NCBI GenBank assembly: GCA_036676395.1
Contig: JAKFCY010000002.1
Location: 1,568,001-1,632,000 of the forward strand
Direction: 5' to 3'
Length of the DNA stretch: 64,000 nt
From: Bdellovibrio sp.
GTDB lineage: Bacteria; Bdellovibrionota; Bdellovibrionia; Bdellovibrionales; Bdellovibrionaceae
The notes under the pieces were generated by a model. It was given only the letters and a program-made list of their open reading frames with translations. It had not been told where the DNA came from and did no database searches. Both the position numbers and the translations under genes were made by a program. How positions within the stretch are numbered: position 1 is the first letter of the stretch; every line of letters starts with the position of its first letter. This document shows, piece by piece, positions 46,138 to 59,328 of this stretch.

Positions 46138-47033
46138 TCAGCTACTATGCCACGTTACAATCATTGGTTGAAGTGGGCTTAGGAAGTTTTTTACACGCGA
46201 TGCATATTCCTTTCTCAGGGCATGCCTTATCGTTAAACCAAGGATTGATCTTAACTCAAGCTTGTCAAAAAACTGAAAACCGTAAAGAGGCGATCACAGC
46301 AACCAATGGCATTTCAATTATCACAGCCATTCTCAAATCACTTTCGCCAATGGGAAAACGCCTGACGCCGATGCTTGCGATCAGCATGCAGGGGTTTTTA
46401 TTTTCAATCGGTGTGTTTATTTTCGGAAATAATATTCTAGGCATGATTTTAGGTATTAGCCTTTTATCACTCTGGAGTTTTGCGCAACCGCTGCTGTTTG
46501 CTTATTTGTTTTTTGGTGAGAAATTATTTTTTGCTGTTGAAAAGCTTTGGCTAGATACCGCTGAAAAATTATCGCTATCTGCTGAGTATGGTCTAAATAT
46601 CTTAATCGCTTTTGTTGGCTTAAAAATTATCTTAGCATGGATTGTAGCTCTGATTGGCTGGAAGTACCCCACTTGGATTACCGAAAAGTATTTCACTAAA
46701 ATCATGAAGTACAAAGACTTCACGACGAATAAAATTAAAAATAGAAAAACTCAAAGCGCTACTAGCGGCGCTTTTAAAGATTTATTAAACCCCTGGATGA
46801 TCATTTCATTAGTCTTAACGATTGGGTTTATGATTTTAACCGAGAAATCAGATTATTTTCAGATTTTTGTTTATAGTCTGCGAGTCATCGCCATTGCCTA
46901 CGTGGTGTTTTTTATTTTACGGGCTTTTCCGCAAAGCTGGATCAAAAAAGCTCTTAAGTCGTTTCCCACTTTAGCAAAGACTGTGGATCAAGTTTACGAT
47001 CGCGCTCCTGAATCAACTGAGCCGAAACACTAA
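46125..47033 (+). CDS. Integral membrane hypothetical protein
   Basis: EVGLGSFLHAMHIPFSG, LKSLSP.G.RLTPMLAISMQG; multiple TMs; start set at ATG 46125. Confidence 0.7.
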   Translation: MQGLISYYATLQSLVEVGLGSFLHAMHIPFSGHALSLNQGLILTQACQKTENRKEAITATNGISIITAILKSLSPMGKRLTPMLAISMQGFLFSIGVFIFGNNILGMILGISLLSLWSFAQPLLFAYLFFGEKLFFAVEKLWLDTAEKLSLSAEYGLNILIAFVGLKIILAWIVALIGWKYPTWITEKYFTKIMKYKDFTTNKIKNRKTQSATSGAFKDLLNPWMIISLVLTIGFMILTEKSDYFQIFVYSLRVIAIAYVVFFILRAFPQSWIKKALKSFPTLAKTVDQVYDRAPESTEPKH

Positions 47034-47781
47034 CTGCAATCTCATAAGGATGATTTTGTCCGATGGGAAAGCCAATTGGGCAATGAAAGTCTTTAAGCGC
47101 TTCTGCACGAATACCGAATTCTTGTAATTCTTTACGCAGTCTTAACCCTTTAACTTTGCTGCCGATGTTTCCAATAAATGGAGCTTCAGCAAAATGCGTG
47201 TAGAGTTGTTTTAAAATTGGTAAATCCATGGCATGACCTTGAGTCATGATTACAAAAAAAGAATCTTTATTTAGCGTTTCAACCATCGCTGATGGATCTT
47301 CGGCATGAATTTTTTTAAGATTAAAGCTTTCAGGAAGTTTATCTAACCATTCGGTGCGATTATCTATGCAAGTGACCTGACAATTTAAATTAATCAATAA
47401 CCGAATCAAGGCTTGCGAAACATGTCCCGCACCGAAGACCACAATCGGCCAGGTGCTATAACGATGCACTTCAAATAGATATGTGATCTCGCCGCCACAG
47501 CTCATACCGATATCACGCTGTAAGTTCCACGTGATAAGTTCAGGTTCTGATTTATTCTGGTTGATCATTTCTTTACTGTGTAAAATCGCACGCGCTTCAA
47601 CCCGACCACCACCAATAGTACCCCAGTGAAGTCCGTTATCGGTGATAATAGCTTTAGCTCCTGCATCTTGCGGCGCTGAACCGCGCGAACCAATCACTGT
47701 TACGACAACAAAAGACCGTGCCCTATTTTGTAATTCGAAAGCTACATCCCAATATGTTTTCATTAATGCAGCTTCGACCAT
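46954..47781 (-). CDS. xdhC: Xanthine dehydrogenase accessory protein XdhC
   Basis: GSAPQDAGAK, GTIGGG, GMSCGG, FGAGHV, MTQGH, IGS, CPIG. Confidence 0.93.
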   Translation of the reverse strand: MVEAALMKTYWDVAFELQNRARSFVVVTVIGSRGSAPQDAGAKAIITDNGLHWGTIGGGRVEARAILHSKEMINQNKSEPELITWNLQRDIGMSCGGEITYLFEVHRYSTWPIVVFGAGHVSQALIRLLINLNCQVTCIDNRTEWLDKLPESFNLKKIHAEDPSAMVETLNKDSFFVIMTQGHAMDLPILKQLYTHFAEAPFIGNIGSKVKGLRLRKELQEFGIRAEALKDFHCPIGFPIGQNHPYEIAVSVSAQLIQERDRKLDPQSLLKWETT

Positions 47782-50195
47782 TTTTTGAAACGTTCAGGAT
47801 TAATGGCTTTTAAAATTTCTTCGTTCGTCGCTGGCAACTCCATCAAAGGATATTTTCCTTTATACGGTGTTAACGTCTTAAGTGCATCGTGAATCGCTGT
47901 CCATACACTTAAACAAAGCAATAATGGCGGCTCGCCTGCCGCTTTGGTGCCGCGAACGTTGGGTTTGTTTTCATTATTATTTAACAAGCGCACATTAAAA
48001 ATTCTTGGCGTATCTTGAATATTCGGAATTTTATACGTACTTGGTGCATGTGATAATAAATAGCCGTTTTTATAAAATAGTTTTTCAGTCGTAACCCAGC
48101 CCATGCCTTGAATAAATGCGCCAGTTACTTGGCCTAAATCAAGCGCTTCATTAATTGGTCGGCCCAGATCCATAATAATATCAACACGAGTCACTTTAGC
48201 TTCGCCGGTGTCTCGATCAATACTGACTTCAGAGCAAGCGGCACCTTGGGTGAAATATAAAAAGGCTACACCTTTGCCCGTTAACTTATTAAAAAGTAAA
48301 CCTGGAAATCTATAATGCGCGTATTCGCTTAGTGAAATTCGATTATGATAGGCTTCAACGATTAACGAATGAAAGCTCATGCGCTTTTCTGGATTTTTTG
48401 TCGAGAAAACTTGGCCATCTTTAAAACTTACCCCGAAGTACTCAGCAATTCCCGAGCTCCATTCAGCGCCTTCGTTAGGATCATTCGTAAGTTTTGCTTC
48501 ATTCACTTCGACTTCGGGCTGAGTACCAAGACCTGCCGTGTGCCTTGCCCAGTGGCTTTCTGGAATATCAAAAAGTTTCAGGGCTAATTCACTCAAGCGC
48601 TGTTTAATTCTGCGAATTCCAATAAGTGCTGCTGCTCCGTTTAGATCTGTACCACTAGAAGCGGCCGTTGGTGAAGTGTTGGCATTTTTATCAGTTGATG
48701 TTGGCATCATGCGAACATCACTGCGCTGCAACCCTAATTCAGAAGCAACTAGTTCAGAAATGCGCGCGTTCACACCTTGGCCCATTTCAGTGGCCCCAGT
48801 TGAAACTTGCAATGTGCCATCACGGTGAATAATGACTAAAGCATTGGCTTGATTCAAAAATCTGGTCGTAAATGAAATACCAAATTTTACTGGCGTTAAT
48901 GACAACCCCTTCATCGGAAGTGATAAATCAGTTATAGCTTTTCGATTATGATCTTCGATTTCTTTACGACGTTTTAAATAATCACTTTCTTTTTCAAGAT
49001 CACTTAATAATCTAGGTAGGCAATTATTTTCAACGACTTGATCGTAGTGAGTCATGTTTCTGCCGTCACGGTCTTCGTAACAATTTAATTTTCTAATCTC
49101 TAAAGAGTCTTTTCCTAAGTAATGCGCGATTTCTTCGATGATTTTTTCAATCATCGCGACACCTTTGGGCCCGCCGAAACCACGAAATGCTGTGTGGGGA
49201 TGGTAATTCGTGCGGCAAACTTGGCCTACAACTCGCATATGCGGAATAAAATAAGCATTATCTGAATGAAGCATCGCGCGCTCCATAATTGATGTCGATA
49301 GATCAGCGTAAGCGCCGCCATCAGAATAAAGTTTGGCATCAAGAGCTGTGATGATACCCTCGTTATCAAAACCGACATTATAAAACACTTCAAACGGATT
49401 GCGTTTACCCGTCATGATCATGTCGTCATCTTTTGTCAGATTAATACGAGCGGCACAATTTAGTTTTTGCGCCACTAACGCTGCGTAGGCCGCAATCGGA
49501 GCAGCTTGGGATTCTTTACCACCAAAACCTCCGCCCATACGTTTTACAATGACGCTCACATCTTTAGAAGTAAGCCCAAGACCGTGCGAAACAACATGCT
49601 GACATTCAGTTGGATGTTGCGATGAAGAATGAATTTCAATCTGCCCGTCTTCTTTAGGGTATGCAACGGCCACATTACTTTCTAAATAGAAATGATCTGC
49701 TCCGCGGATAACTAGTGAATTTTCTAATTTATTGGGTGCAAGTTTTAATGCTTGTTCGACATCACCGCGTTCAATTTTTCTAGACCCTGCGATCCAAGAT
49801 TCTAATGAGATCGCATCTTGAATAGAAAGTACAGCAGGCTTTATTTCATAACTAATTTCAATTAAGGCTTTTGCCTCACAGGCAGCATCAATACTAGTTG
49901 CTGCGATAAGTGCGATCGCTTCGCCAACAAAATTCACTTCAACGTCAGCCAATAACGGCTGATCGCGAAAAATAGTTCCCCAAAGGTTTTCATGAAAGTC
50001 TTTACCTAAGAATATACCCTTTACGCCAGGATGTTTTAAAGCTTTATCAATATTGATCTTTTTAATTTTAGCTTTGGCGTGCGGACTAAATAACACTTCA
50101 ACATGTAATTCATTGGATAACTTTGGGCGATCATCAACGAATTCACTTTGGCCGGTTACATGGGTATGTGCCGAATCGTGAGGAAGATTACTCAT
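47763..50195 (-). CDS. xdhB: Xanthine dehydrogenase molybdopterin-binding subunit
   Basis: PHDSAHTHVTG, SSQHP, RMGGGFGGKESQ, AFRGFGGP, KFGISFT, TAASSGTDLNG, KAAGEPP. Confidence 0.96.
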   Translation of the reverse strand: MSNLPHDSAHTHVTGQSEFVDDRPKLSNELHVEVLFSPHAKAKIKKINIDKALKHPGVKGIFLGKDFHENLWGTIFRDQPLLADVEVNFVGEAIALIAATSIDAACEAKALIEISYEIKPAVLSIQDAISLESWIAGSRKIERGDVEQALKLAPNKLENSLVIRGADHFYLESNVAVAYPKEDGQIEIHSSSQHPTECQHVVSHGLGLTSKDVSVIVKRMGGGFGGKESQAAPIAAYAALVAQKLNCAARINLTKDDDMIMTGKRNPFEVFYNVGFDNEGIITALDAKLYSDGGAYADLSTSIMERAMLHSDNAYFIPHMRVVGQVCRTNYHPHTAFRGFGGPKGVAMIEKIIEEIAHYLGKDSLEIRKLNCYEDRDGRNMTHYDQVVENNCLPRLLSDLEKESDYLKRRKEIEDHNRKAITDLSLPMKGLSLTPVKFGISFTTRFLNQANALVIIHRDGTLQVSTGATEMGQGVNARISELVASELGLQRSDVRMMPTSTDKNANTSPTAASSGTDLNGAAALIGIRRIKQRLSELALKLFDIPESHWARHTAGLGTQPEVEVNEAKLTNDPNEGAEWSSGIAEYFGVSFKDGQVFSTKNPEKRMSFHSLIVEAYHNRISLSEYAHYRFPGLLFNKLTGKGVAFLYFTQGAACSEVSIDRDTGEAKVTRVDIIMDLGRPINEALDLGQVTGAFIQGMGWVTTEKLFYKNGYLLSHAPSTYKIPNIQDTPRIFNVRLLNNNENKPNVRGTKAAGEPPLLLCLSVWTAIHDALKTLTPYKGKYPLMELPATNEEILKAINPERFKKWSKLH

Positions 50196-51654
50196 GACTT
50201 GCCCCATTTTCGCGAAAGAATTTATTAAATAGATTTTCGGTCACGATATGGCGAAATGTATCCGATGCACGTAAATCACTTAATGGCGTAATTTCAGCAT
50301 GCAAATGATCTAAAGCTTTTTCTAACAAGGCTTGGTCGATTGTTGTGTTCGTTAAGCTTTTTTCAGTTTTATATAAACGTAGTGTCGTCGCAGCTACGCC
50401 GCCAACGGCGATTTTAATATCTTTGATTTTAGTTTTTTCTTTATCAGCCCATAATACACGAGCTGCAAAGTTAACCGCTGAAATATCTAAATCTTTACGC
50501 TGAGATATTTTATAAAGCGCTAAAGATTCATGTTTTTGCGGAATATCAAAATGCAAAGCTACGATGATCTCTTTCGAAGTCAGTGCGATTTTGCGATAAT
50601 CTAAAAAAAACGATTCTAATTTCACGAAACGTTTTTTAGTAGGACCATGAATTTCGACTTCAGTGTTCATCGTTAGCAAAAATGGCGGTGTATCAGCAAT
50701 TGGCGAAGCATTTGCCACGTTTCCGACTAAGGTAGCTAAGTTTTTAATTTGTGGCGATGCGAATAAATCTAAAAATCTGGCAAATTCAGGAATCAGATCT
50801 TTCACGTACAAACGCAAATCACTTAACGTAACACGGGCCCCAACCGACAAGCGCGTTTTCGATGTTTTTTCGATGTCATATAATTCGGGCACTAAATGTA
50901 AGCTTAGAGTCTGCGATAAACGCATTTTGCGTTTATTATGCACAACTCCCAGATCTGTGGCCGCAGCTACAATTTTAGCCGATTTGTTTTTACCTAAGAA
51001 ATTAACAGCATCTTTAATTTTAACAGGGGCAAAGAACGAAAATTTATCGCTAGTTAACACAATTGGTACTTTTAAATGAGCTGCCACATCTTTTTGCGAA
51101 GCAAGGCTTGAAAATCTTTTACTCACCGATTCAGATTCGCTCAAAGAAATGTTTTTCGCAGCATCAATAATGGGTTGATAACCGGTGCAGCGGCAAAGAT
51201 TACCTGTGGTCGCATTTTTAGCATCACAAGAAGTAATTTCTGTTTGTTTTTGGCAAAGTTTTTTCTCGACTAAACCAGTCAACGCCATCACAAAACCCGG
51301 AGTACAAAAGCCACACTGACTGCCATGGCAAGTCATCATCGCCTTTTGCACTGGCGTATGCTCTGGATTCGCCAAGGCATCAACTGTGACTAAATGTGAG
51401 CCATCCATCTGTGCAACTGTCGTCACACATGAATTAATCGGCAGAAAAATGTTTTTCTTTTTTCCAGACTGATAAGGGTAAAAACGCAGCACCGAGCAGG
51501 CGCCACAGTCGCCCTCAGCACAGACGATTTTTGTCCCCGTAAGATTCTTATGATAACGAAGATAATCTGAAAGCATCACGCCGGCCTGTTCGCCCGAAAT
51601 TTGATGTCTTTCACCATTAAGATAAAATAGGATGTAATTGCGTGTCTTCATCAA
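50188..51654 (-). CDS. xdhA: Xanthine dehydrogenase small (2Fe-2S/FAD) subunit
   Basis: GTKIVCAEGDCGAC, QCGFCTPG, GNLCRCTGY, ASPQIKNLATLVGNVANASP. Confidence 0.96.
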   Translation of the reverse strand: MMKTRNYILFYLNGERHQISGEQAGVMLSDYLRYHKNLTGTKIVCAEGDCGACSVLRFYPYQSGKKKNIFLPINSCVTTVAQMDGSHLVTVDALANPEHTPVQKAMMTCHGSQCGFCTPGFVMALTGLVEKKLCQKQTEITSCDAKNATTGNLCRCTGYQPIIDAAKNISLSESESVSKRFSSLASQKDVAAHLKVPIVLTSDKFSFFAPVKIKDAVNFLGKNKSAKIVAAATDLGVVHNKRKMRLSQTLSLHLVPELYDIEKTSKTRLSVGARVTLSDLRLYVKDLIPEFARFLDLFASPQIKNLATLVGNVANASPIADTPPFLLTMNTEVEIHGPTKKRFVKLESFFLDYRKIALTSKEIIVALHFDIPQKHESLALYKISQRKDLDISAVNFAARVLWADKEKTKIKDIKIAVGGVAATTLRLYKTEKSLTNTTIDQALLEKALDHLHAEITPLSDLRASDTFRHIVTENLFNKFFRENGASHE

Positions 51655-51716: not shown

Positions 51717-52181
51717 ATGAACAATCAATATATGAAAAGAGCCATTGAGCTTTCAAAAAATAATATCGCCCACGGCGGCGGTCCCTTTGGCGCTGTCATT
51801 GTAAAAGATGGTAAAATTATCGGTGAAGGTTTTAACAAGGTCACCGCTAACAACGACCCCACAGCTCATGCTGAGGTTGAAGCCATCCGCGAAGCTTGTA
51901 AGAACATCAGCAACTTTGATTTAAACGGTGCCGAAATTTACACCAGCTGCGAACCCTGCCCGATGTGCTTATCGGCTATTTACTGGGCGCGCCTATCGAA
52001 AGTTTATTACGCCAATACAAAAAAAGATGCTGCAGATATCGAATTTGATGATGCTTTCATCTACACTGAAATTCCAAAACCGATTGAACAACGAAAAATT
52101 TCAATGGTTCAGATGATGCGCCCCGAAGCTTTAGAAGTTTTTAAAGCCTGGCAAACTTCAACAGTAAAAATTAAGTACTAG
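51717..52181 (+). CDS. guaD: Guanine deaminase (cytidine-deaminase-like nucleoside deaminase family)
   Basis: GGPFGA, NDPTAHAE, YTSCEPCPMC, FDDAFIY; divergent from xdhABC. Confidence 0.9.
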   Translation: MNNQYMKRAIELSKNNIAHGGGPFGAVIVKDGKIIGEGFNKVTANNDPTAHAEVEAIREACKNISNFDLNGAEIYTSCEPCPMCLSAIYWARLSKVYYANTKKDAADIEFDDAFIYTEIPKPIEQRKISMVQMMRPEALEVFKAWQTSTVKIKY

Positions 52182-52699: not shown

Positions 52700-53278
52700 A
52701 TGGAACAAAACAAACCAAGTAACGCTACTACCGAAATAGATACCGCTGCAGAGCGTGCACGCGCCGCCGCAACAAACATCGCCACGACTGCGCCGGTCAC
52801 AGTGACCAACACCCCGAGTGTCGTTGTCGAAGGTGAAATTCGTCAGCTTTTAGAAGAATTTGCAGATTCAGTTCGCAGCGGAAAAATAGAAGATATTATG
52901 TCGTTTTATGATCCAAGTTTAGTCGCCTTCGATGTCGCCCCACCCCTACGCTTTACCAGTGCTACTGAATATAAAAAGAATTGGGAAACCATGTTCACAT
53001 CGGCCATGGAATTTCCAGTCACTTACGAATGGAGTGAAGAAAGAATTTTTGCTAGTGGTGAGATTGGTATTTTTCATTGTCTGATTCACACGGCAGGAAC
53101 ATTTAAAAATCCGCCAGAAGGCCAAGATAAAAATATGGACTGCTGGGGTCGCTACACGTGCGCCTTGAAAAAAACGAATAATCGCTGGCGCATTGTGCAC
53201 GAACACTTTTCAGTGCCCGTGGGTGAAGATGGCAAAGGTTTAATGAATTTGAAACCTGGCTTTCAGGCTTCTCATTAG
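52700..53278 (+). CDS. NTF2/SnoaL-like (YybH/DUF4440) protein
   Basis: IMSFY..VAFDVAPPL, RYTCAL...WRIVHEHFSVP. Confidence 0.9.
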   Translation: MEQNKPSNATTEIDTAAERARAAATNIATTAPVTVTNTPSVVVEGEIRQLLEEFADSVRSGKIEDIMSFYDPSLVAFDVAPPLRFTSATEYKKNWETMFTSAMEFPVTYEWSEERIFASGEIGIFHCLIHTAGTFKNPPEGQDKNMDCWGRYTCALKKTNNRWRIVHEHFSVPVGEDGKGLMNLKPGFQASH

Positions 53279-54711
53279 ATCGGTGAATTATTAGAGCATT
53301 GCATTTTACGAAACTGATCCATTTTTGAATAAATGAGGTCAGCCCATAATTCATTAATTCTAGAATTTAAGGCATCGCCTTTTAAACCCGTTTGTTTTTC
53401 AACAAGCTTTTTAAAAGGCATGTCGACATCGTGAAAATTTGAAACTTGCAAGATCGTCATTAAATCCTGACGAGAAACTAAATCTAAACGAGCTACGAAA
53501 TCACGGCGAGCTTGCTCTGTAACAGTTTTTAATCCAGGTAAGTCTTTATTAGGACCTTTTCCCGGCTGCGCTGTCAGGGTACAGTTATTATCAGCAAACA
53601 TATTTAAAGCTCTGTAAGCATTGTAGTCACCACGCGGATGATTTTTATTTTTAACAAACTTCAAATCGCGATTTCCAAATGCAGAACCTAAATCGTGGGT
53701 TCCGGCAATCGGTGAATTACAAAGTTTTTTAAGACCATCAGCAGATTTCACAACATTCGCCTCTTCACATAATAATACGTGCTGCGAACCACGTTCTTCC
53801 ACCGTATGAACCAGATTGATAAATAACGCTAACACCTGAATTTCGTGCTGCTGCAGAACTGATAATTTTTTGAAATTCGTAATGTATTCATCCCAGCGCC
53901 AAGGTGTGTTTACAAAACTTTTTCCAAGTTTTGGATTTGAAGTAAAAGCCTTCATGATACGTTTACCTTCAAACTTTCTCTCGATACTTGCACCCGGAAA
54001 AATATTTGTTTTAGCCACCGGAACTAGCTGCGGTTCTAAACCGTTCTTCCAAGGGTCGGTATCACAGCCAAAGCACACCACTTCATTCACCGGGTAATAA
54101 TTTTCAGACGGAAAGCCCATCATCCAAGCTAAGCGAGTAGCTACGCTACTGGTGTAAGCTTCGCGGTGACGCCATTCATTTAATTCTGATTGGTTTTTCA
54201 TGCCCTCTTCAGACACTTTAAAACGAACTTTTAAAACATCACCGATCATTGGTTTTACTTCGCCTTTTTTAGTCGTATAGGTGATCACGCTGCCATCCTT
54301 ACGAATCATAACATCTTCTTCAAGTTTTCCAGAAATCAATACATCTTTAATCATCGCAGCTTCTGGTGAAAGCTGGCCTTTATCAGACATCATTACATTT
54401 TTATCATCAGTTCTGACACAGCGAAATTTATTGCTTGAGCCATTTTGGTAGCGATAAAAATAGCGGCAAAACAAACGGCTTTGCGCCGTGATTTGAGGCT
54501 CACTGCTCTTAGCACCGGCAATGATTTCATCTGGTGTTTTTTTAGCTGGAGCAGGTAATAAAAAACGAGACTCACGCAAACAATTAATACGGTTAGCGTC
54601 TTTATTGCTGATAGGCTTTTCTAGATCGGCAAAAATTTCGCAGGCGGCAAAGCTAGTTTGAGCAAAGGCCGACGTCATTAATACCATAGCCAAAATACGA
54701 GATAATTTCAT
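53275..54711 (-). CDS. Secreted protein, atypical-kinase-like fold, possibly a pseudokinase
   Basis: Signal peptide from ATG 54711 (GGAG SD); GSSNKFRC, LKVR, REAYTSSVATRLAWMMGF, HDLGSAFG. Confidence 0.6.
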   Translation of the reverse strand: MKLSRILAMVLMTSAFAQTSFAACEIFADLEKPISNKDANRINCLRESRFLLPAPAKKTPDEIIAGAKSSEPQITAQSRLFCRYFYRYQNGSSNKFRCVRTDDKNVMMSDKGQLSPEAAMIKDVLISGKLEEDVMIRKDGSVITYTTKKGEVKPMIGDVLKVRFKVSEEGMKNQSELNEWRHREAYTSSVATRLAWMMGFPSENYYPVNEVVCFGCDTDPWKNGLEPQLVPVAKTNIFPGASIERKFEGKRIMKAFTSNPKLGKSFVNTPWRWDEYITNFKKLSVLQQHEIQVLALFINLVHTVEERGSQHVLLCEEANVVKSADGLKKLCNSPIAGTHDLGSAFGNRDLKFVKNKNHPRGDYNAYRALNMFADNNCTLTAQPGKGPNKDLPGLKTVTEQARRDFVARLDLVSRQDLMTILQVSNFHDVDMPFKKLVEKQTGLKGDALNSRINELWADLIYSKMDQFRKMQCSNNSPI

Positions 54712-54736
54712 AAGATTCTCCAACATGAATTAACCC

Positions 54737-54752
54737 AGCAACCAAGGTGCCA
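54737..54752 (-). promoter_or_regulatory. Sigma54 -24/-12 element (consensus match)
   Basis: TGGCAC-CTTGG-TTGCT. Confidence 0.75.
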
Positions 54753-54875
54753 CTTCAGCTGGTGTTTATTTGCCTTAGAGACCGCAAAAAATGCAAATAG
54801 GCTCCAGATATTGACAGCTTGTCGAATTTCTAAACAGCGAAAGTCGTCTCAAAATGACTATAACGAAAGCCTTCT

Positions 54876-54891
54876 TGGCACCTAGCTTGAA
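54876..54891 (+). promoter_or_regulatory. Sigma54-like -24/-12 element
   Basis: TGGCAC-CTAGC-TTGAA; first 8 nt identical to the divergent element. Confidence 0.6.
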
Positions 54892-54935
54892 GTTGTAACT
54901 CTCGGTTAAAAAGCCCTTTTTTTTGGAGATACAAA

Positions 54936-56414
54936 ATGACCCTACGTCAAACTTCGCTATTTTTTGTGGTTTTACCATCGTTTTTGGCAACACCTGTCTT
55001 TGCCTTGATGGATTTAAAAACTCCGCGCGGAAGCCAAACGATCAGCTATACGAAAAACGAAGTTTGCGTGATTCCCAGAAAATTTCCGAATATCGATGCT
55101 AAAAAGCAGAATCAATCAAATTATTCGAATAAGGATTTAGAGAGCGAATTAGAATTATGCCGCATGGATTTTTACGCTCAATCCCCGTTTACCAAAAACA
55201 CCGCTACGAGTTACGCGACAGGTTTATGCCCGAAATTACATAACACCAACCCAGGTCTTGAAATTTACGAAATTCAACAAGGTGATAATAAACAAGCTTT
55301 AGAAAATAGAATTTGCGATATGCCCTCAGACATGCGCGACGGCACTAAGCTTGCAAAATATAAATTAAGCACCAGCTGCAGTTACACGCCGTCAATTTTA
55401 GCTTATTATCATGTGTCTCGCATCATGGGAGACCTGTTGAAAGTTCCGCCCGTGGTGTTACGTACCATGGATGTTGAAACTTATAAAGCTGTGCCGGTAA
55501 AAGGTAAAAAAACTTTATCTAAAGGCGGCGTTATCGCTGCTACGTGGAAAAACGTGATCAACCAGTTAAATAACCCAACAACAGATAAACGTGGCCCTTA
55601 TTTATTTACTCATGATTACCAACAAACTTTCGGCGGCCTAATGAAAAATGCCAAAGGTGAAGCCGACTGGTCAGAAATTTCTAATCATGCCGGTGGCGAT
55701 CAAATGGCGCGCGGCAAAGCCTTTATGCAGGAACAAGTGTATTTAGATTTAATTAATCCAAATTTAACGTCTGAATTTATTGGCCAAAACTGGGATCAAA
55801 ACAATGCGCAACGCATGCGTTTAATGGGTGATGCCGCAGATATGTTAGTTTTAGATTTTATTTTACGCCAAGAAGATCGTTTTAATAATATCGCTTACAA
55901 ACTTGAAGTGTCAGGGCTTGTGAAAAATGCGCAAGGCCTGCTTGATATTAAATCTATCGATGTAAAAAAAGCTGATTCAGCTGAAGAGTTAGCCAAAGCC
56001 AATTTAGAGTTTAAAAATAAATATAATACAGACAGTTTCGCCATTCGCCGAATTATGCTTAAAGATAATGACTGTGGCGTGGCCGTCGAAGGCCCTGTAG
56101 CTCGCACAGGTATTGCTGAAAAATTAAAAATGTTAGAAAACATTCGTCATTTGAAAAAATCAACTTACAACCAGCTCTTACGTTTTAATTTATATTTATC
56201 AAGCGCAAGTTCTGCCAGTTACGCCAAAGATTTTTTCATTAAAGAAACGATGATGACAGATAAAGATTATAGTCAGTTTGTTTTAAACACGAAACGTTTA
56301 GCTGAGGGCTTAAAATCATTATGTAACGCAGGCCAATTACATTTAGATCTGCAATTAGAAACCCATTTCGGCGCAAGTTATAAAGCTGGCGCTCAAAACT
56401 GCTCCGTCGATTAA
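54936..56414 (+). CDS. Secreted atypical kinase-like protein (Fam20C/Four-jointed/PI4K-type motifs)
   Basis: Signal peptide; AKYK, [53 protein letters not shown]. Confidence 0.7.
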   Translation: [492 protein letters not shown]

Positions 56415-57181
56415 GCTGATTTTTTATTTTTTAATTCGTCGATATTAAGTCTGCGGCCCGAGCCTTCACCCGGATATTTTTTATGATTGGCTCCGGGATA
56501 AGCATAGCCGTTGATCAGCACCCTGCGCGGCGTAGCCGAAACATTCTTCGTGCTGGCATGAATAACATAAGGGTGAAATAAAACAATATCACCTGGTTGC
56601 ATTAATAATTCTTCAGCCCGCGAAATATCGACCACAGAATTAATATCTGCAATATTATTTAAACCCATATGATTTAATTTATTGCTGCCAGCAATGAACT
56701 TTACCGGGCCTTTATCAGCTGTCACTTCGTCAATGGCAATGAGAGTTTGCACATAACTTCCAAGTCCATTCACATCCGTCCAATCGCTGGTTCCATAACC
56801 GCGATGCTGGCTATCTTGGTGCCATTCAAATTCGATATCATCACCTGGCATTTTAAAATGTATTTGATTGATCAATTGATCCATCTCGATTGTGCCTAAA
56901 AGCTGGCTCACGGGTTCTAAAATACGAAGATCAGCACCAAAATCTAAAAGATCTTTTTCATGCGCCCCTGCCCACACCACTCGGTGCAACGCCTGGTTTT
57001 CGAAAACAAATTGCGAACCGTTAAAGACTTGAGATGTTGAATTTAATTTTTTACTAGATTGCAGCAGTCCTTCGGTCGCCGAAATCATTTGCGCTAAATC
57101 CTGCCTGCTAAATACTTTGGGTATTACAATAAAGCCACGTTCATAGAATTCTGCTATCTGTAGTTTCGAAAGTGTTACCAT
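56411..57181 (-). CDS. Phytanoyl-CoA dioxygenase (PhyH) family Fe/2OG oxygenase
   Basis: FYERGF, WHQD, IAIDEVT..GP, PGDIVLFH..HAS..N....RR. Confidence 0.92.
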   Translation of the reverse strand: MVTLSKLQIAEFYERGFIVIPKVFSRQDLAQMISATEGLLQSSKKLNSTSQVFNGSQFVFENQALHRVVWAGAHEKDLLDFGADLRILEPVSQLLGTIEMDQLINQIHFKMPGDDIEFEWHQDSQHRGYGTSDWTDVNGLGSYVQTLIAIDEVTADKGPVKFIAGSNKLNHMGLNNIADINSVVDISRAEELLMQPGDIVLFHPYVIHASTKNVSATPRRVLINGYAYPGANHKKYPGEGSGRRLNIDELKNKKSA

Positions 57182-58416: not shown

Positions 58417-59328
58417 ATGCCAGATCAATACCTGCACCGCATTTTACCTCATATTAAAGATACTTTTTCTGATGCAGAAATTTCTATTCAGGCAAATCAT
58501 GCTGTCGTTGAAAAATTAAATCACAATTTTACTTTAATTTTAGAAGACAACAAAATTCACAACGATGATTCGTTTGGTTTTGTTAAACTGAAAGTACCGA
58601 TTGATAGCCAAGGTTTAAACTACGAACAGCTGAATCTATTTGTCGCGCAAATGAATCATTGTCATCGCGGTTGCCACTGGGCCATAGACACCGTCACAGA
58701 CACGATCTCATCAGATGATGTGCAACTTTATCTCTACGCTACGATGATCACAGAACTTGGCCGAAGAATTGATGATAAAGATCAGATCGTGATGGAAATT
58801 TTAAATCTGCAAAAAATGAAATATTACACCGATCAATATTTAACCGAGATGAAATCAAATCCATTGTGGTTAACTAGTTTTTCGTTAACTTACGGTAAAA
58901 ATATTATTCCGTGCTTAGCGCCTGAGAATTTTCTAAATCCAGAAGACAACTCGATTTACAAGCGGACGATAAAGCACATGGAAAAGCTGAATTATCGCAT
59001 CGAACAGATCAATGGCTCATGTTTTAAAGTGACTAACGAAAAGCTGACGGTTTCGGTTCTGACTTTTCTTGGGCCAGAACTTATGAGTATTTATTCAGTC
59101 GTCACAGAAGAAAATAAAACCTTTCTTAACTTAAAAAAACTGCTGAATGAACGTAATCAAGACTTAATCATGGGACATTATGAAATATCGCCTATTGCGC
59201 AAATTGTAGGATACACTAACTACCTGCGTTTAGCTGATGGCATGCGTGATATTAAGCTACGTTTGTTCTTAGACTCGCCAGACATTGCAAAAATGATTTA
59301 TTTTGACAATCAATCTGTGGCCGCCTAA
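58417..59328 (+). CDS. Hypothetical protein, possibly tandem YbjN/type-III-chaperone-like domains
   Basis: 303-aa ORF; two similar segments (QMNHCHRGCHWAI / ERNQDLIMGHYEI). Confidence 0.6.
   Translation: MPDQYLHRILPHIKDTFSDAEISIQANHAVVEKLNHNFTLILEDNKIHNDDSFGFVKLKVPIDSQGLNYEQLNLFVAQMNHCHRGCHWAIDTVTDTISSDDVQLYLYATMITELGRRIDDKDQIVMEILNLQKMKYYTDQYLTEMKSNPLWLTSFSLTYGKNIIPCLAPENFLNPEDNSIYKRTIKHMEKLNYRIEQINGSCFKVTNEKLTVSVLTFLGPELMSIYSVVTEENKTFLNLKKLLNERNQDLIMGHYEISPIAQIVGYTNYLRLADGMRDIKLRLFLDSPDIAKMIYFDNQSVAA

Follow-up and report, generated by a model that had tools for sequence, protein, structure and literature searches.

Does a Bdellovibrio genome encode a secretory kinase of the Fam20 type? 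The question is raised by an open reading frame (ORF; hereafter, the target) that lies in a stretch of 64,000 nucleotides from Bdellovibrio sp. (contig JAKFCY010000002.1, positions 1,568,001 to 1,632,000 of the forward strand), analysed here as a whole and referred to below as the window. The initial annotation of this DNA had read the product as a secreted protein with Fam20C/Four-jointed-like catalytic motifs. Such kinases are regarded chiefly as enzymes of animals: Fam20C is the Golgi casein kinase, which phosphorylates the Ser of S-x-E, Fam20B is a xylosylkinase, and Fam20A is a pseudokinase. The comparisons described here sustain one part of that annotation, a predicted Fam20-like kinase fold in which the catalytic-loop motifs are retained, and not the other, namely membership of the family itself, since the corresponding Pfam model (PF06702) is left unmatched.

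The kinship with Fam20 is carried first by profile comparison. An alignment of 94 family sequences with 25-61% identity to the target (alignment A1, on which all residue counts out of 94 below are based) was compared by hhalign with 20 PF06702 proteins, taken from Myxococcota loci that match this model, with ORFs read on the strand given for each locus. PF06702 does work on bacteria: 24 of 201 Myxococcota genomes matched it at E<=0.001, 22 of them above the cut-off. The two sets aligned with a probability of 96.7% (E 3.6e-10) over 144 columns, corresponding to query positions 141-329, whereas control comparisons of A1 with three other families – that of the divergent neighbour gene, DUF2252, and a protein tyrosine phosphatase (PTP)-like family, all described below – gave probabilities of 0.1-0.4% (E 0.16-0.51). 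Three blocks are aligned: KfKqS in the target family against fKP.Qt in PF06702, YYHlSR.LG..VP.aV.RT against AAyhLdR.LG..vPP..GR, and SDMilLD.LLsQqDR.GN against SDmivFDyLi.N.DRwsGgN. The four motifs quoted in the initial annotation are all present in the translation (residues 156-176, 302-318, 375-381 [LKDNDCG], and 403-414), and nowhere is conservation within the family higher; its argument that four such motifs in order exceed chance is borne out by the gap between this match and the controls. Solved Fam20 structures and bacterial PF06702 proteins, rather than the human Fam20C sequence, served as the reference for the motifs. In addition, bacterial PF06702 clusters make up 7 of the 30 nearest clusters in ESM Atlas features, with a score of 0.91, and FJX1 (Four-jointed box kinase 1) scores 0.87; this feature similarity serves as a lead only. 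Judged by these profiles, the target is a remote homologue of Fam20C-domain proteins and not a PF06702 member as Pfam defines it: the family criterion is a gathering score of 26.8 bits, which the target does not reach, and a single one of the 94 family members matches the model, with an E-value (0.041) below significance. Similarly, PF06702 had no match in two other genomes that carry the family. Because the model is unmatched, we file these proteins as a separate exported bacterial Fam20-like family.

Predicted structure leads to the same place. An AlphaFold2 (AF2) model of the target built on A1 has a mean predicted local distance difference test score (pLDDT) of 93.5 and a predicted template modelling score of 0.92. 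A Foldseek search of the PDB with this model returned 21 matches at E<=1e-3, the best being human Fam20C (hFam20C; 5yh3_C, E 1.3e-5), followed by zebrafish Fam20C, Fam20A, type II phosphatidylinositol 4-kinase alpha (PI4KIIalpha), and the Caenorhabditis elegans Golgi casein kinase. In the VIA-align comparison, Hydra Fam20 came first (Z 18.4, 278 residues aligned, root mean square deviation 3.8), together with its entry "with sugar" (5xoo, Z 18.2), ahead of DrFam20C1 (Z 17.1, 294 aligned), hFam20C (Z 16.8, 295 aligned), PI4KIIalpha (Z 16.0, 250 aligned), C. elegans Fam20 (Z 15.0, 298 aligned), and Fam20A (Z 13.9, 280 aligned); CtkA (Z 11.8, 230 aligned), CotH (Z 10.3, 240 aligned), HipA (Z about 8, 225-230 aligned), and phosphoinositide 3-kinase (Z about 7, about 195-225 aligned) followed. 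A search of 48,161 chains, made independently of Foldseek, reproduced this order, and all 12 chains that it placed at Z>=8 are kinase-like. The model thus supports a Fam20-type atypical kinase fold, nearest to the solved Fam20 kinases, with the type II PI4-kinases as a second structural group in the modelled comparison (Z 15.1-16.0, 234-263 aligned). The initial annotation had named the lack of any significant profile or structural match to the kinase-like superfamily as the outcome that would overturn it; instead, the hhalign and Foldseek matches were both significant and Fam20 ranked first, and together they support its interpretation.

The residues expected of an active site are among the best preserved in the family. 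G233, D307, Q312, D314, R315, and H405 are invariant (94/94); N318 and D377 are each conserved in 93 sequences, D379 and K143 in 92, K141 in 90, N378 in 89, Y411 in 88, G381 in 87, and C380 in 86. The motifs of the bacterial PF06702 proteins were mapped to human Fam20C numbers, the Lys of fKP being what we take to be K285. In human Fam20C, according to the accessible text of the structural literature, the metal-binding Asp is D478, the catalytic Asp is D458, and K285 forms an ion pair with E311 (PMC4421793). On motif grounds and from the strand that precedes it (residues 368-374), D377 would be the counterpart of the DNG metal-binding Asp. The spacing between the two Asp motifs is longer than in PF06702: D314 and D377 lie 63 residues apart (family median 54, range 28-90, in the 83 of 94 members in which a regular expression found both motifs), against 20-22 residues between the Asp of DR and that of DN in 15 of 20 PF06702 proteins. 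The insert is therefore about 41-43 residues long, and the figure of about 55 given earlier has to be revised downward. The fourth motif, RHLKKSTY, paired with the PF06702 segment qrFrrstv only in a low-confidence extended alignment.

The departure from the canonical site concerns the partner of the Lys. The earlier caveat that the alphaC Glu is not obviously retained was well founded: where the PF06702 proteins have their conserved Glu (sEiAAy), the target has Ser153, and no Glu or Asp occurs in this column in any of the 94 members. As the ion-pair Glu is replaced by Ser153, the active site is non-canonical. The column of E242 (E in 75 and D in 10 of 94) might offer a candidate alternative acidic partner. 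No counterpart of human Fam20C E306 was identified in the target family; like E311, this Fam20-specific active-site Glu is essential in Fam20C, and its replacement by Gln makes Fam20A a pseudokinase, as stated in the portion of the source available (PMC4421793).

The protein also carries the marks of export. The initial annotation had called it secreted, which agrees with a predicted signal peptide, with an AXA-type cleavage site aligned in 12 homologues, and with the finding that 88 of 94 family members begin with a region containing a hydrophobic 10-mer (crude Kyte-Doolittle test); in the AF2 model, pLDDT is only 50-57 over residues 1-20. The target has exactly eight Cys residues (44, 75, 98, 127, 148, 380, 463, and 489), and at each of these positions 85-93 of the 94 sequences have Cys. 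Eight conserved Cys together with a signal-peptide-like N-terminus form the pattern of an oxidised, exported protein, and the target is accordingly predicted to be Sec-exported and stabilised by disulfides.

On balance, the target is probably an exported phosphotransferase of the Fam20 type that depends on metal and nucleotide and in which the Lys has a non-canonical partner. What the comparisons show is the homology, the conserved residues, and, in the model, the fold; catalysis, the nucleotide donor, and the substrate are predicted. The protein would leave the cytoplasm via Sec, after which up to four disulfides would form from the eight conserved Cys. Its two lobes would bind a nucleotide, with K141 and/or K143 contacting the phosphates, while N318 and D377 would hold the divalent metal(s) and D314 would act as the catalytic base in the transfer of the gamma-phosphate to a hydroxyl group of the substrate. 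This could take place in the periplasm, on the outside of the cell, or else within prey or on its surface, and the substrate could be a protein, a glycan, or a lipid head group.

Several observations weigh against a kinase of this type. The periplasm is not expected to contain adenosine triphosphate (ATP), and a search of the target's own genome for a TLC-type ATP/ADP transporter (PF03219) found none at E<=1e-3, a weak negative since control genomes were unmatched as well. At the sequence level, the target matched no family in Pfam (E<=1) or NCBIfam; phmmer and the family profile, run against PDB sequences, returned noise only (best E 1.1 for pseudoazurin and 0.21 for HMGB3), and PF06702 found nothing at E<=10 in the whole own genome. 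The best Foldseek TM-scores are moderate (0.39-0.49). In the active site, the Ser153 column is occupied by S in 72, A in 16, and G in 6 of the 94 sequences, and hhalign does not bridge the insert to place D377 opposite the DNG motif. Finally, the target's own locus has neither of the PTP-like and DUF2252 neighbours that recur in the family.

Rather than a protein kinase, the target could be a kinase of small molecules, glycans, or lipids, either a Fam20B-like sugar kinase with the envelope or exopolysaccharide as its substrate or a PI4KII-like enzyme that modifies lipid head groups in the membranes of the cell or of its prey; we consider this unlikely. It draws on the structural ranking, in which the best match is the Fam20B-like Hydra protein, including the entry with sugar, and in which the type II PI4-kinases lie within about 2 Z units. 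However, the Fam20C protein kinases come within about 1.5 Z units of the best match (17.1 and 16.8), so that the ranking does not discriminate. PF00454 (PI3_PI4_kinase) had no match in the target at E<=1, nor did it appear in the list of 25 families obtained for the 94 members (E<=0.1). A kinome survey suggests phosphoinositide or other lipids as possible substrates of bacterial families that cluster with FAM20/CotH (PMC9758233). Around the family genes, however, no glycosyltransferase or lipid-metabolism genes recur within 4 kb, and the recurrent PTP-like neighbour would fit protein and phosphoinositide substrates equally.

It is rather improbable that the fold performs another nucleotide-dependent transfer, such as AMPylation or glutamylation, in the manner of SelO and SidJ. 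Kinase folds are capable of such chemistry (the available parts of PMC10870513, and works cited in PMC7948968), and the site does look unusual in the relevant respects: the ion-pair Glu column is never acidic, and the adjacent conserved D377 and D379, together with the invariant Q312 and H405, are unlike the canonical Fam20 set. However, the D-R..N loop and the D-N motif, which are diagnostic of phosphotransfer, are intact, the nearest structures are bona fide kinases, and SelO and SidJ are absent both from the 50 VIA-align entries listed and from the matches of the 48,161-chain search. A catalytically dead pseudokinase, serving as a ligand- or partner-binding scaffold or as an allosteric subunit, might be suspected from the missing ion-pair Glu, given that the loss of one active-site Glu inactivates Fam20A (PMC4421793, in the part accessible), but it is very unlikely in view of the active-site pattern formed by the invariant D307, Q312, D314, and R315 and the near-invariant K141, N318, and D377.

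The target gene is real and conserved. Its dN/dS ratio (nonsynonymous to synonymous substitution rates) is 0.066-0.173 in pairwise comparisons with six orthologues, and this low value, together with the conservation of the family, indicates a real gene under purifying selection. The G+C content at the locus is 0.406, in a window that elsewhere ranges from 0.37 to 0.43. A promoter and terminator consensus scan of window positions 54600-56700 showed no excess over shuffled sequences, with 6 sigma-70 sites where 5.9 were expected, and an Rfam scan of the window found one tRNA only. Metatranscriptome data yielded only four small contigs at 90-99% identity, two of them, from soil, on the target gene (95-99%). 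These hint, if weakly, that the gene is transcribed in a near relative, with DNA carry-over or such a relative as the possible source. Small contigs of one soil run (X14) covered window positions 53812-54083, within the neighbour gene, and 55739-55935 and 56116-56292, within the target, at 94-98% identity. The features of the locus and of related loci are collected in Table 1.

Table 1. Features of the target gene, its surroundings, and selected related loci. Positions are those of the window unless a related locus (L number) is named; residue numbers are those of the target.
Feature	Position	Strand	Remarks
Target ORF, predicted exported Fam20-like kinase-fold protein	54936..56414	+	ATG start, 492 aa plus stop (ORF list)
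Shine-Dalgarno-like GGAG	54925..54928	+	7 nt 5' of the ATG; sequence reading
Divergent intergenic region between target and neighbour gene	54727..54935	.	209 nt; ORF coordinates
Predicted Sec signal peptide, residues 1-23	54936..55004	+	MTLRQ, hydrophobic core, predicted cleavage between VFA and L; read from sequence
K141-Y-K143, end of strand 138-143	55356..55364	+	K141 opposite the Lys of PF06702 fKP.Q (hhalign); candidate ATP-binding/ion-pair Lys
Helix 151-163 plus VPPVVLR, residues 151-176	55386..55463	+	Opposite PF06702 block AAyhLdR.LG..vPP..GR (hhalign)
Catalytic-loop block D307-N318	55854..55889	+	Predicted catalytic Asp D314 and Asn N318; opposite FDyLi.N.DRwsGgN (hhalign)
Family-variable insert, residues 320-367	55893..56036	+	AF2: beta-hairpin 320-342, helix 349-363
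K376-D-N-D-C-G381, candidate DFG/DNG equivalent	56061..56078	+	Predicted metal-binding Asp D377; follows strand 368-374
H405..T410-Y411 block (RHLKKSTY)	56148..56168	+	Fourth motif of the initial annotation; H405 94/94, Y411 88/94
Divergent neighbour, predicted second exported kinase-fold protein	53275..54726	-	483 aa; AF2 and VIA-align
PhyH-family dioxygenase gene, convergent	56411-57181	-	Overlaps the last 4 nt of the target
Xanthine-dehydrogenase-type cluster	46954-51654	-	Fer2_2/FAD_binding_5/CO_deh_flav_C subunit, molybdopterin-binding subunit, XdhC
Cytidine/deoxycytidylate-deaminase-family gene	51717-52181		Adjoins the xanthine-dehydrogenase-type cluster
Paralogue 1 in the window's own genome	L089:5033..6463	-	476 aa; followed by PTP-like gene L089:4297..5010 (-)
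PTP-like genes, examples	L089:4297-5010 (-); L060:5341-6060; L018:1386-2129; L025:6560-7237		And 28 other loci
Four-gene cassette, example L040	3989-5368; 5396-6463; 6465-7115; 7131-8630		Similar in L031, L032, L049, L068-L070, L072

The family is large and reaches well beyond the genus. A HMMER search of 1.84 billion cluster representatives returned 333 proteins at E<=1e-3, 259 at E<=1e-10, and 122 at E<=1e-30, most of them 430-500 aa long and aligning end to end. Within Bdellovibrionota, the family profile matched 65 of 401 sampled genomes, including 37 of 52 genomes of the window's own family, 11 of 13 of its own genus, and 21 of 26 of genus g17; the single target protein as query matched 19 of 41 relatives, all within the genus. 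Relatives at about 30-36% identity occur outside the phylum in Bradyrhizobium, Methylococcales/Methylococcaceae, Nitrosospira, Acidoferrales/Acidobacteriaceae, Labilithrix (Myxococcota), Binataceae, and Thermodesulfobacteriota records. A search for related loci, with a 12-row alignment (A2) as query, confirmed 114 of 180 candidate stretches, 80 of which were kept; among these, the nearest, at 77-85% identity, belong to Pseudobdellovibrio or Bdellovibrionota records. DNA of this predatory bacterium also occurs in soil and groundwater metagenomes. Family-profile matches in several genomes (e.g., G389, G567, G249, G455, and G003) contain one in-frame TAA or TAG, probably where the match overruns the end or start of a gene.

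Three paralogues occur in the window's own genome. The first lies in a same-strand run (L089:3155-10221, minus strand, in G000:C2:1176000-1188000) that encodes proteins of 292, 432, 476, 476 (the paralogue), 237 (PTP-like), 234, and 107 aa. No significant Pfam match was obtained for any of the signal-peptide-bearing proteins encoded on the same strand around this paralogue, and the run may be an operon of exported proteins without family assignment. The third paralogue (L090:4671-6107, plus strand; G000:C2:1711671-1713107) keeps Q-Q-D-R..N and has V-D-N-D-A-A in place of K-D-N-D-C-G, so that the Cys of this motif is missing.

The commonest neighbours of the family genes were determined in 87 family loci, whose ORFs were called and then grouped with BLASTP under single linkage (E<=1e-8, coverage >=50%). 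A PTP-like protein of 190-275 aa adjoins the family gene in 32 of these loci, mostly in the same orientation and at a distance of 2-230 nt. This exported protein has no Pfam match, and the named ESM Atlas clusters closest to it are without exception members of the tyrosine/dual-specificity phosphatase clan (0.88-0.95). Its Cys-phosphatase P-loop reads H-C-x-x-G-x-H-A-[ST]-G, with Ala in place of the Arg of CX5R in all 30 alignment rows that reach it (a 31st row is truncated), and the protein may be an atypical or pseudo-phosphatase, to judge from this motif. Directly downstream of the family gene, 17 of the 87 loci carry a kinase-like DUF2252 protein of 350-390 aa (PF10009, E 8e-9). In several proteobacterial and acidobacterial loci, these elements are assembled into a four-gene cassette composed of a family member, DUF2252, the PTP-like protein, and a second, deep-branching family member. 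No transporters were found among the recurrent neighbours within 4 kb of the family genes in the 87 loci.

In the window, the target stands back to back with a gene that appears to encode a second exported kinase-fold protein. This neighbour has a signal-peptide-like N-terminus, 10 Cys residues, no Pfam match, and a dN/dS of 0.056-0.158, and its relatives are present in 20 of 401 Bdellovibrionota genomes. Its AF2 model, built on a 31-row alignment, has a pLDDT of 88.2. Foldseek found nothing at E<=1e-3 with this model (best match CtkA, E 1.3e-3); the wide VIA-align comparison gave CtkA (Z 11.4), Hydra Fam20 (11.1), CotH (10.5), PI4KIIalpha (10.3), and DrFam20C1 (10.2), and all 13 chains at Z>=8 are atypical kinases. 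In its family, K166 (30/31), E189 (29/31), and the D345 and G347 of D-x-G (31/31 each) are conserved, and the wider family has a catalytic loop H-x-D-x4-N (H in 17, D in 19, and N in 16 of 31). In the window's neighbour and its seven closest relatives, the corresponding residues are T308-V-E310...Q315, i.e., H is replaced by T, D by E, and N by Q. According to the model, the neighbour is a kinase-like protein that keeps the Lys, the Glu, and D-x-G but has an altered catalytic loop, and it could be either an altered enzyme or a pseudokinase-like partner.

The possibility that target and neighbour are sequence paralogues was considered and rejected, as BLASTP was marginal (E 0.004 and 0.033) and hhalign gave a probability of 0.2% with both shallow and 31-row alignments; in the absence of detectable homology, the two are alike by structure only. 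A comparison of the neighbour's family with the PF06702 proteins was in register and not significant (hhalign 1.9%, E 0.025). The neighbour adjoins a target-family gene in 10 of the 87 loci: nine are orthologous, with target identity down to 55%, and the tenth (L052) is a diverged paralogous pair, in which the neighbour is 41% and the target-family protein 34% identical. The same adjacent divergent arrangement occurs in genomes G606, G529, G393, and G481; G003 and G012, with a relative of only 32-35% identity, lack this adjacency. In a midpoint-rooted FastTree phylogeny of the target and 99 family ORFs of at least 380 aa, the pair-bearing genes form one clade within the Bdellovibrionota sequences, to which one locus without the neighbour (L085) also belongs. 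A heterodimer prediction for target residues 24-492 and neighbour residues 29-483 gave ipSAE values of 0.00 and 0.00, a result that weighs neither for nor against binding.

The conserved divergent pair, together with the PTP-like and DUF2252 context, points to a module for extracytoplasmic phosphorylation. A more ambitious proposal would have the target and its neighbour act together outside the cytoplasm as an exported kinase and its altered-loop partner, a prokaryotic counterpart of Fam20C and Fam20A, and would join them with the PTP-like and DUF2252 proteins in a widespread reversible system, possibly supplied with nucleotides from prey or through export by the cell; we regard this whole as improbable, and that a predator might take its donor nucleotides from prey is speculation. 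The parallel with the Fam20A–Fam20C pair lies in the juxtaposition of an exported kinase-fold gene with an intact loop and one with an altered loop. However, the present pairing is known from genes and models, its two members are not detectably paralogous, and the neighbour's changes are D to E and N to Q, whereas Fam20A has lost an active-site Glu.

Elsewhere at the target's own locus, the 4-nt overlap with the convergent PhyH gene leaves no room for a terminator between the two genes. The other neighbours encode a SnoaL-like protein, the cytidine/deoxycytidylate deaminase, a CBS-pair protein, DUF2231, and the xanthine-dehydrogenase-type cluster, and their synteny extends only to close relatives (4-7 of 87 loci). 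An ORF of 303 aa at window positions 58417-59328 (plus strand) matches two secretion-chaperone-like folds of Pfam, CesT_Tir_1 (E 0.018) and YbjN (E 0.054), at a weak, sub-threshold level and is syntenic in L009-L012.

How does the family compare with known kinases of this fold? With the Fam20/PF06702 proteins it shares predicted export by a signal peptide, a richness in disulfides, and an atypical kinase fold (Z 15-18.4, 278-298 aligned). Their profiles are homologous from the Lys strand through the helix/VPP segment to the catalytic loop, and the family retains a D-R..N loop and a D-N motif. It differs from them in being only 12-15% identical in structural alignments, in leaving the Pfam model unmatched, in having Ser at the ion-pair Glu column, Q-x-D-R instead of N-x-D-R, and K-D-N-D-C-G instead of L-D-N-G, in the extra residues between the Asp motifs, and in its own 8-Cys pattern. 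Moreover, unlike Fam20, the target would act in a prokaryotic periplasmic or extracellular setting without a known ATP supply. The type II PI4-kinases (PI4KIIalpha/beta), which are cytosolic eukaryotic proteins, have a catalytic loop of the same D-R..N type, whereas the target has no PI3_PI4_kinase Pfam match, is predicted to be exported and disulfide-rich, and shares fewer aligned residues with them than with Fam20C. The broad fold is also that of Helicobacter CtkA (Z 11.8-11.9), CotH of the Bacillus spore coat (9.4-10.3), HipT (10.7), and HipA (about 8-9), of which CtkA and CotH act outside the cytoplasm of their producer; however, these structural scores lie clearly below those of Fam20 and PI4KII, and neither sequence nor profile comparison revealed any similarity.

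The accessible text of a 2022 kinome survey places FAM20 among the eukaryote- or Metazoa-specific clusters, and also describes novel Legionella families that cluster with FAM20/CotH (PMC9758233). FAM20B is listed among possible myxobacterial contributions in the available part of a 2026 preprint (10.64898/2026.05.08.723234). A literature search on bacterial Fam20-like and Bdellovibrio secreted atypical kinases, supplements excluded, found no publication on the present family, and bacterial PF06702 proteins are, as far as this search shows, present in databases but unstudied. What appears to be new is therefore an exported bacterial Fam20-like family that matches no Pfam model, has its own active-site and disulfide signature, and, in this lineage, is paired with a second predicted exported kinase-fold protein.

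Bacteria are not known to phosphorylate targets beyond the inner membrane, ATP being absent there. If this family is active, extracytoplasmic phosphorylation in bacteria would become directly testable, and the family would bear on the origin of the secretory-pathway kinases of eukaryotes.

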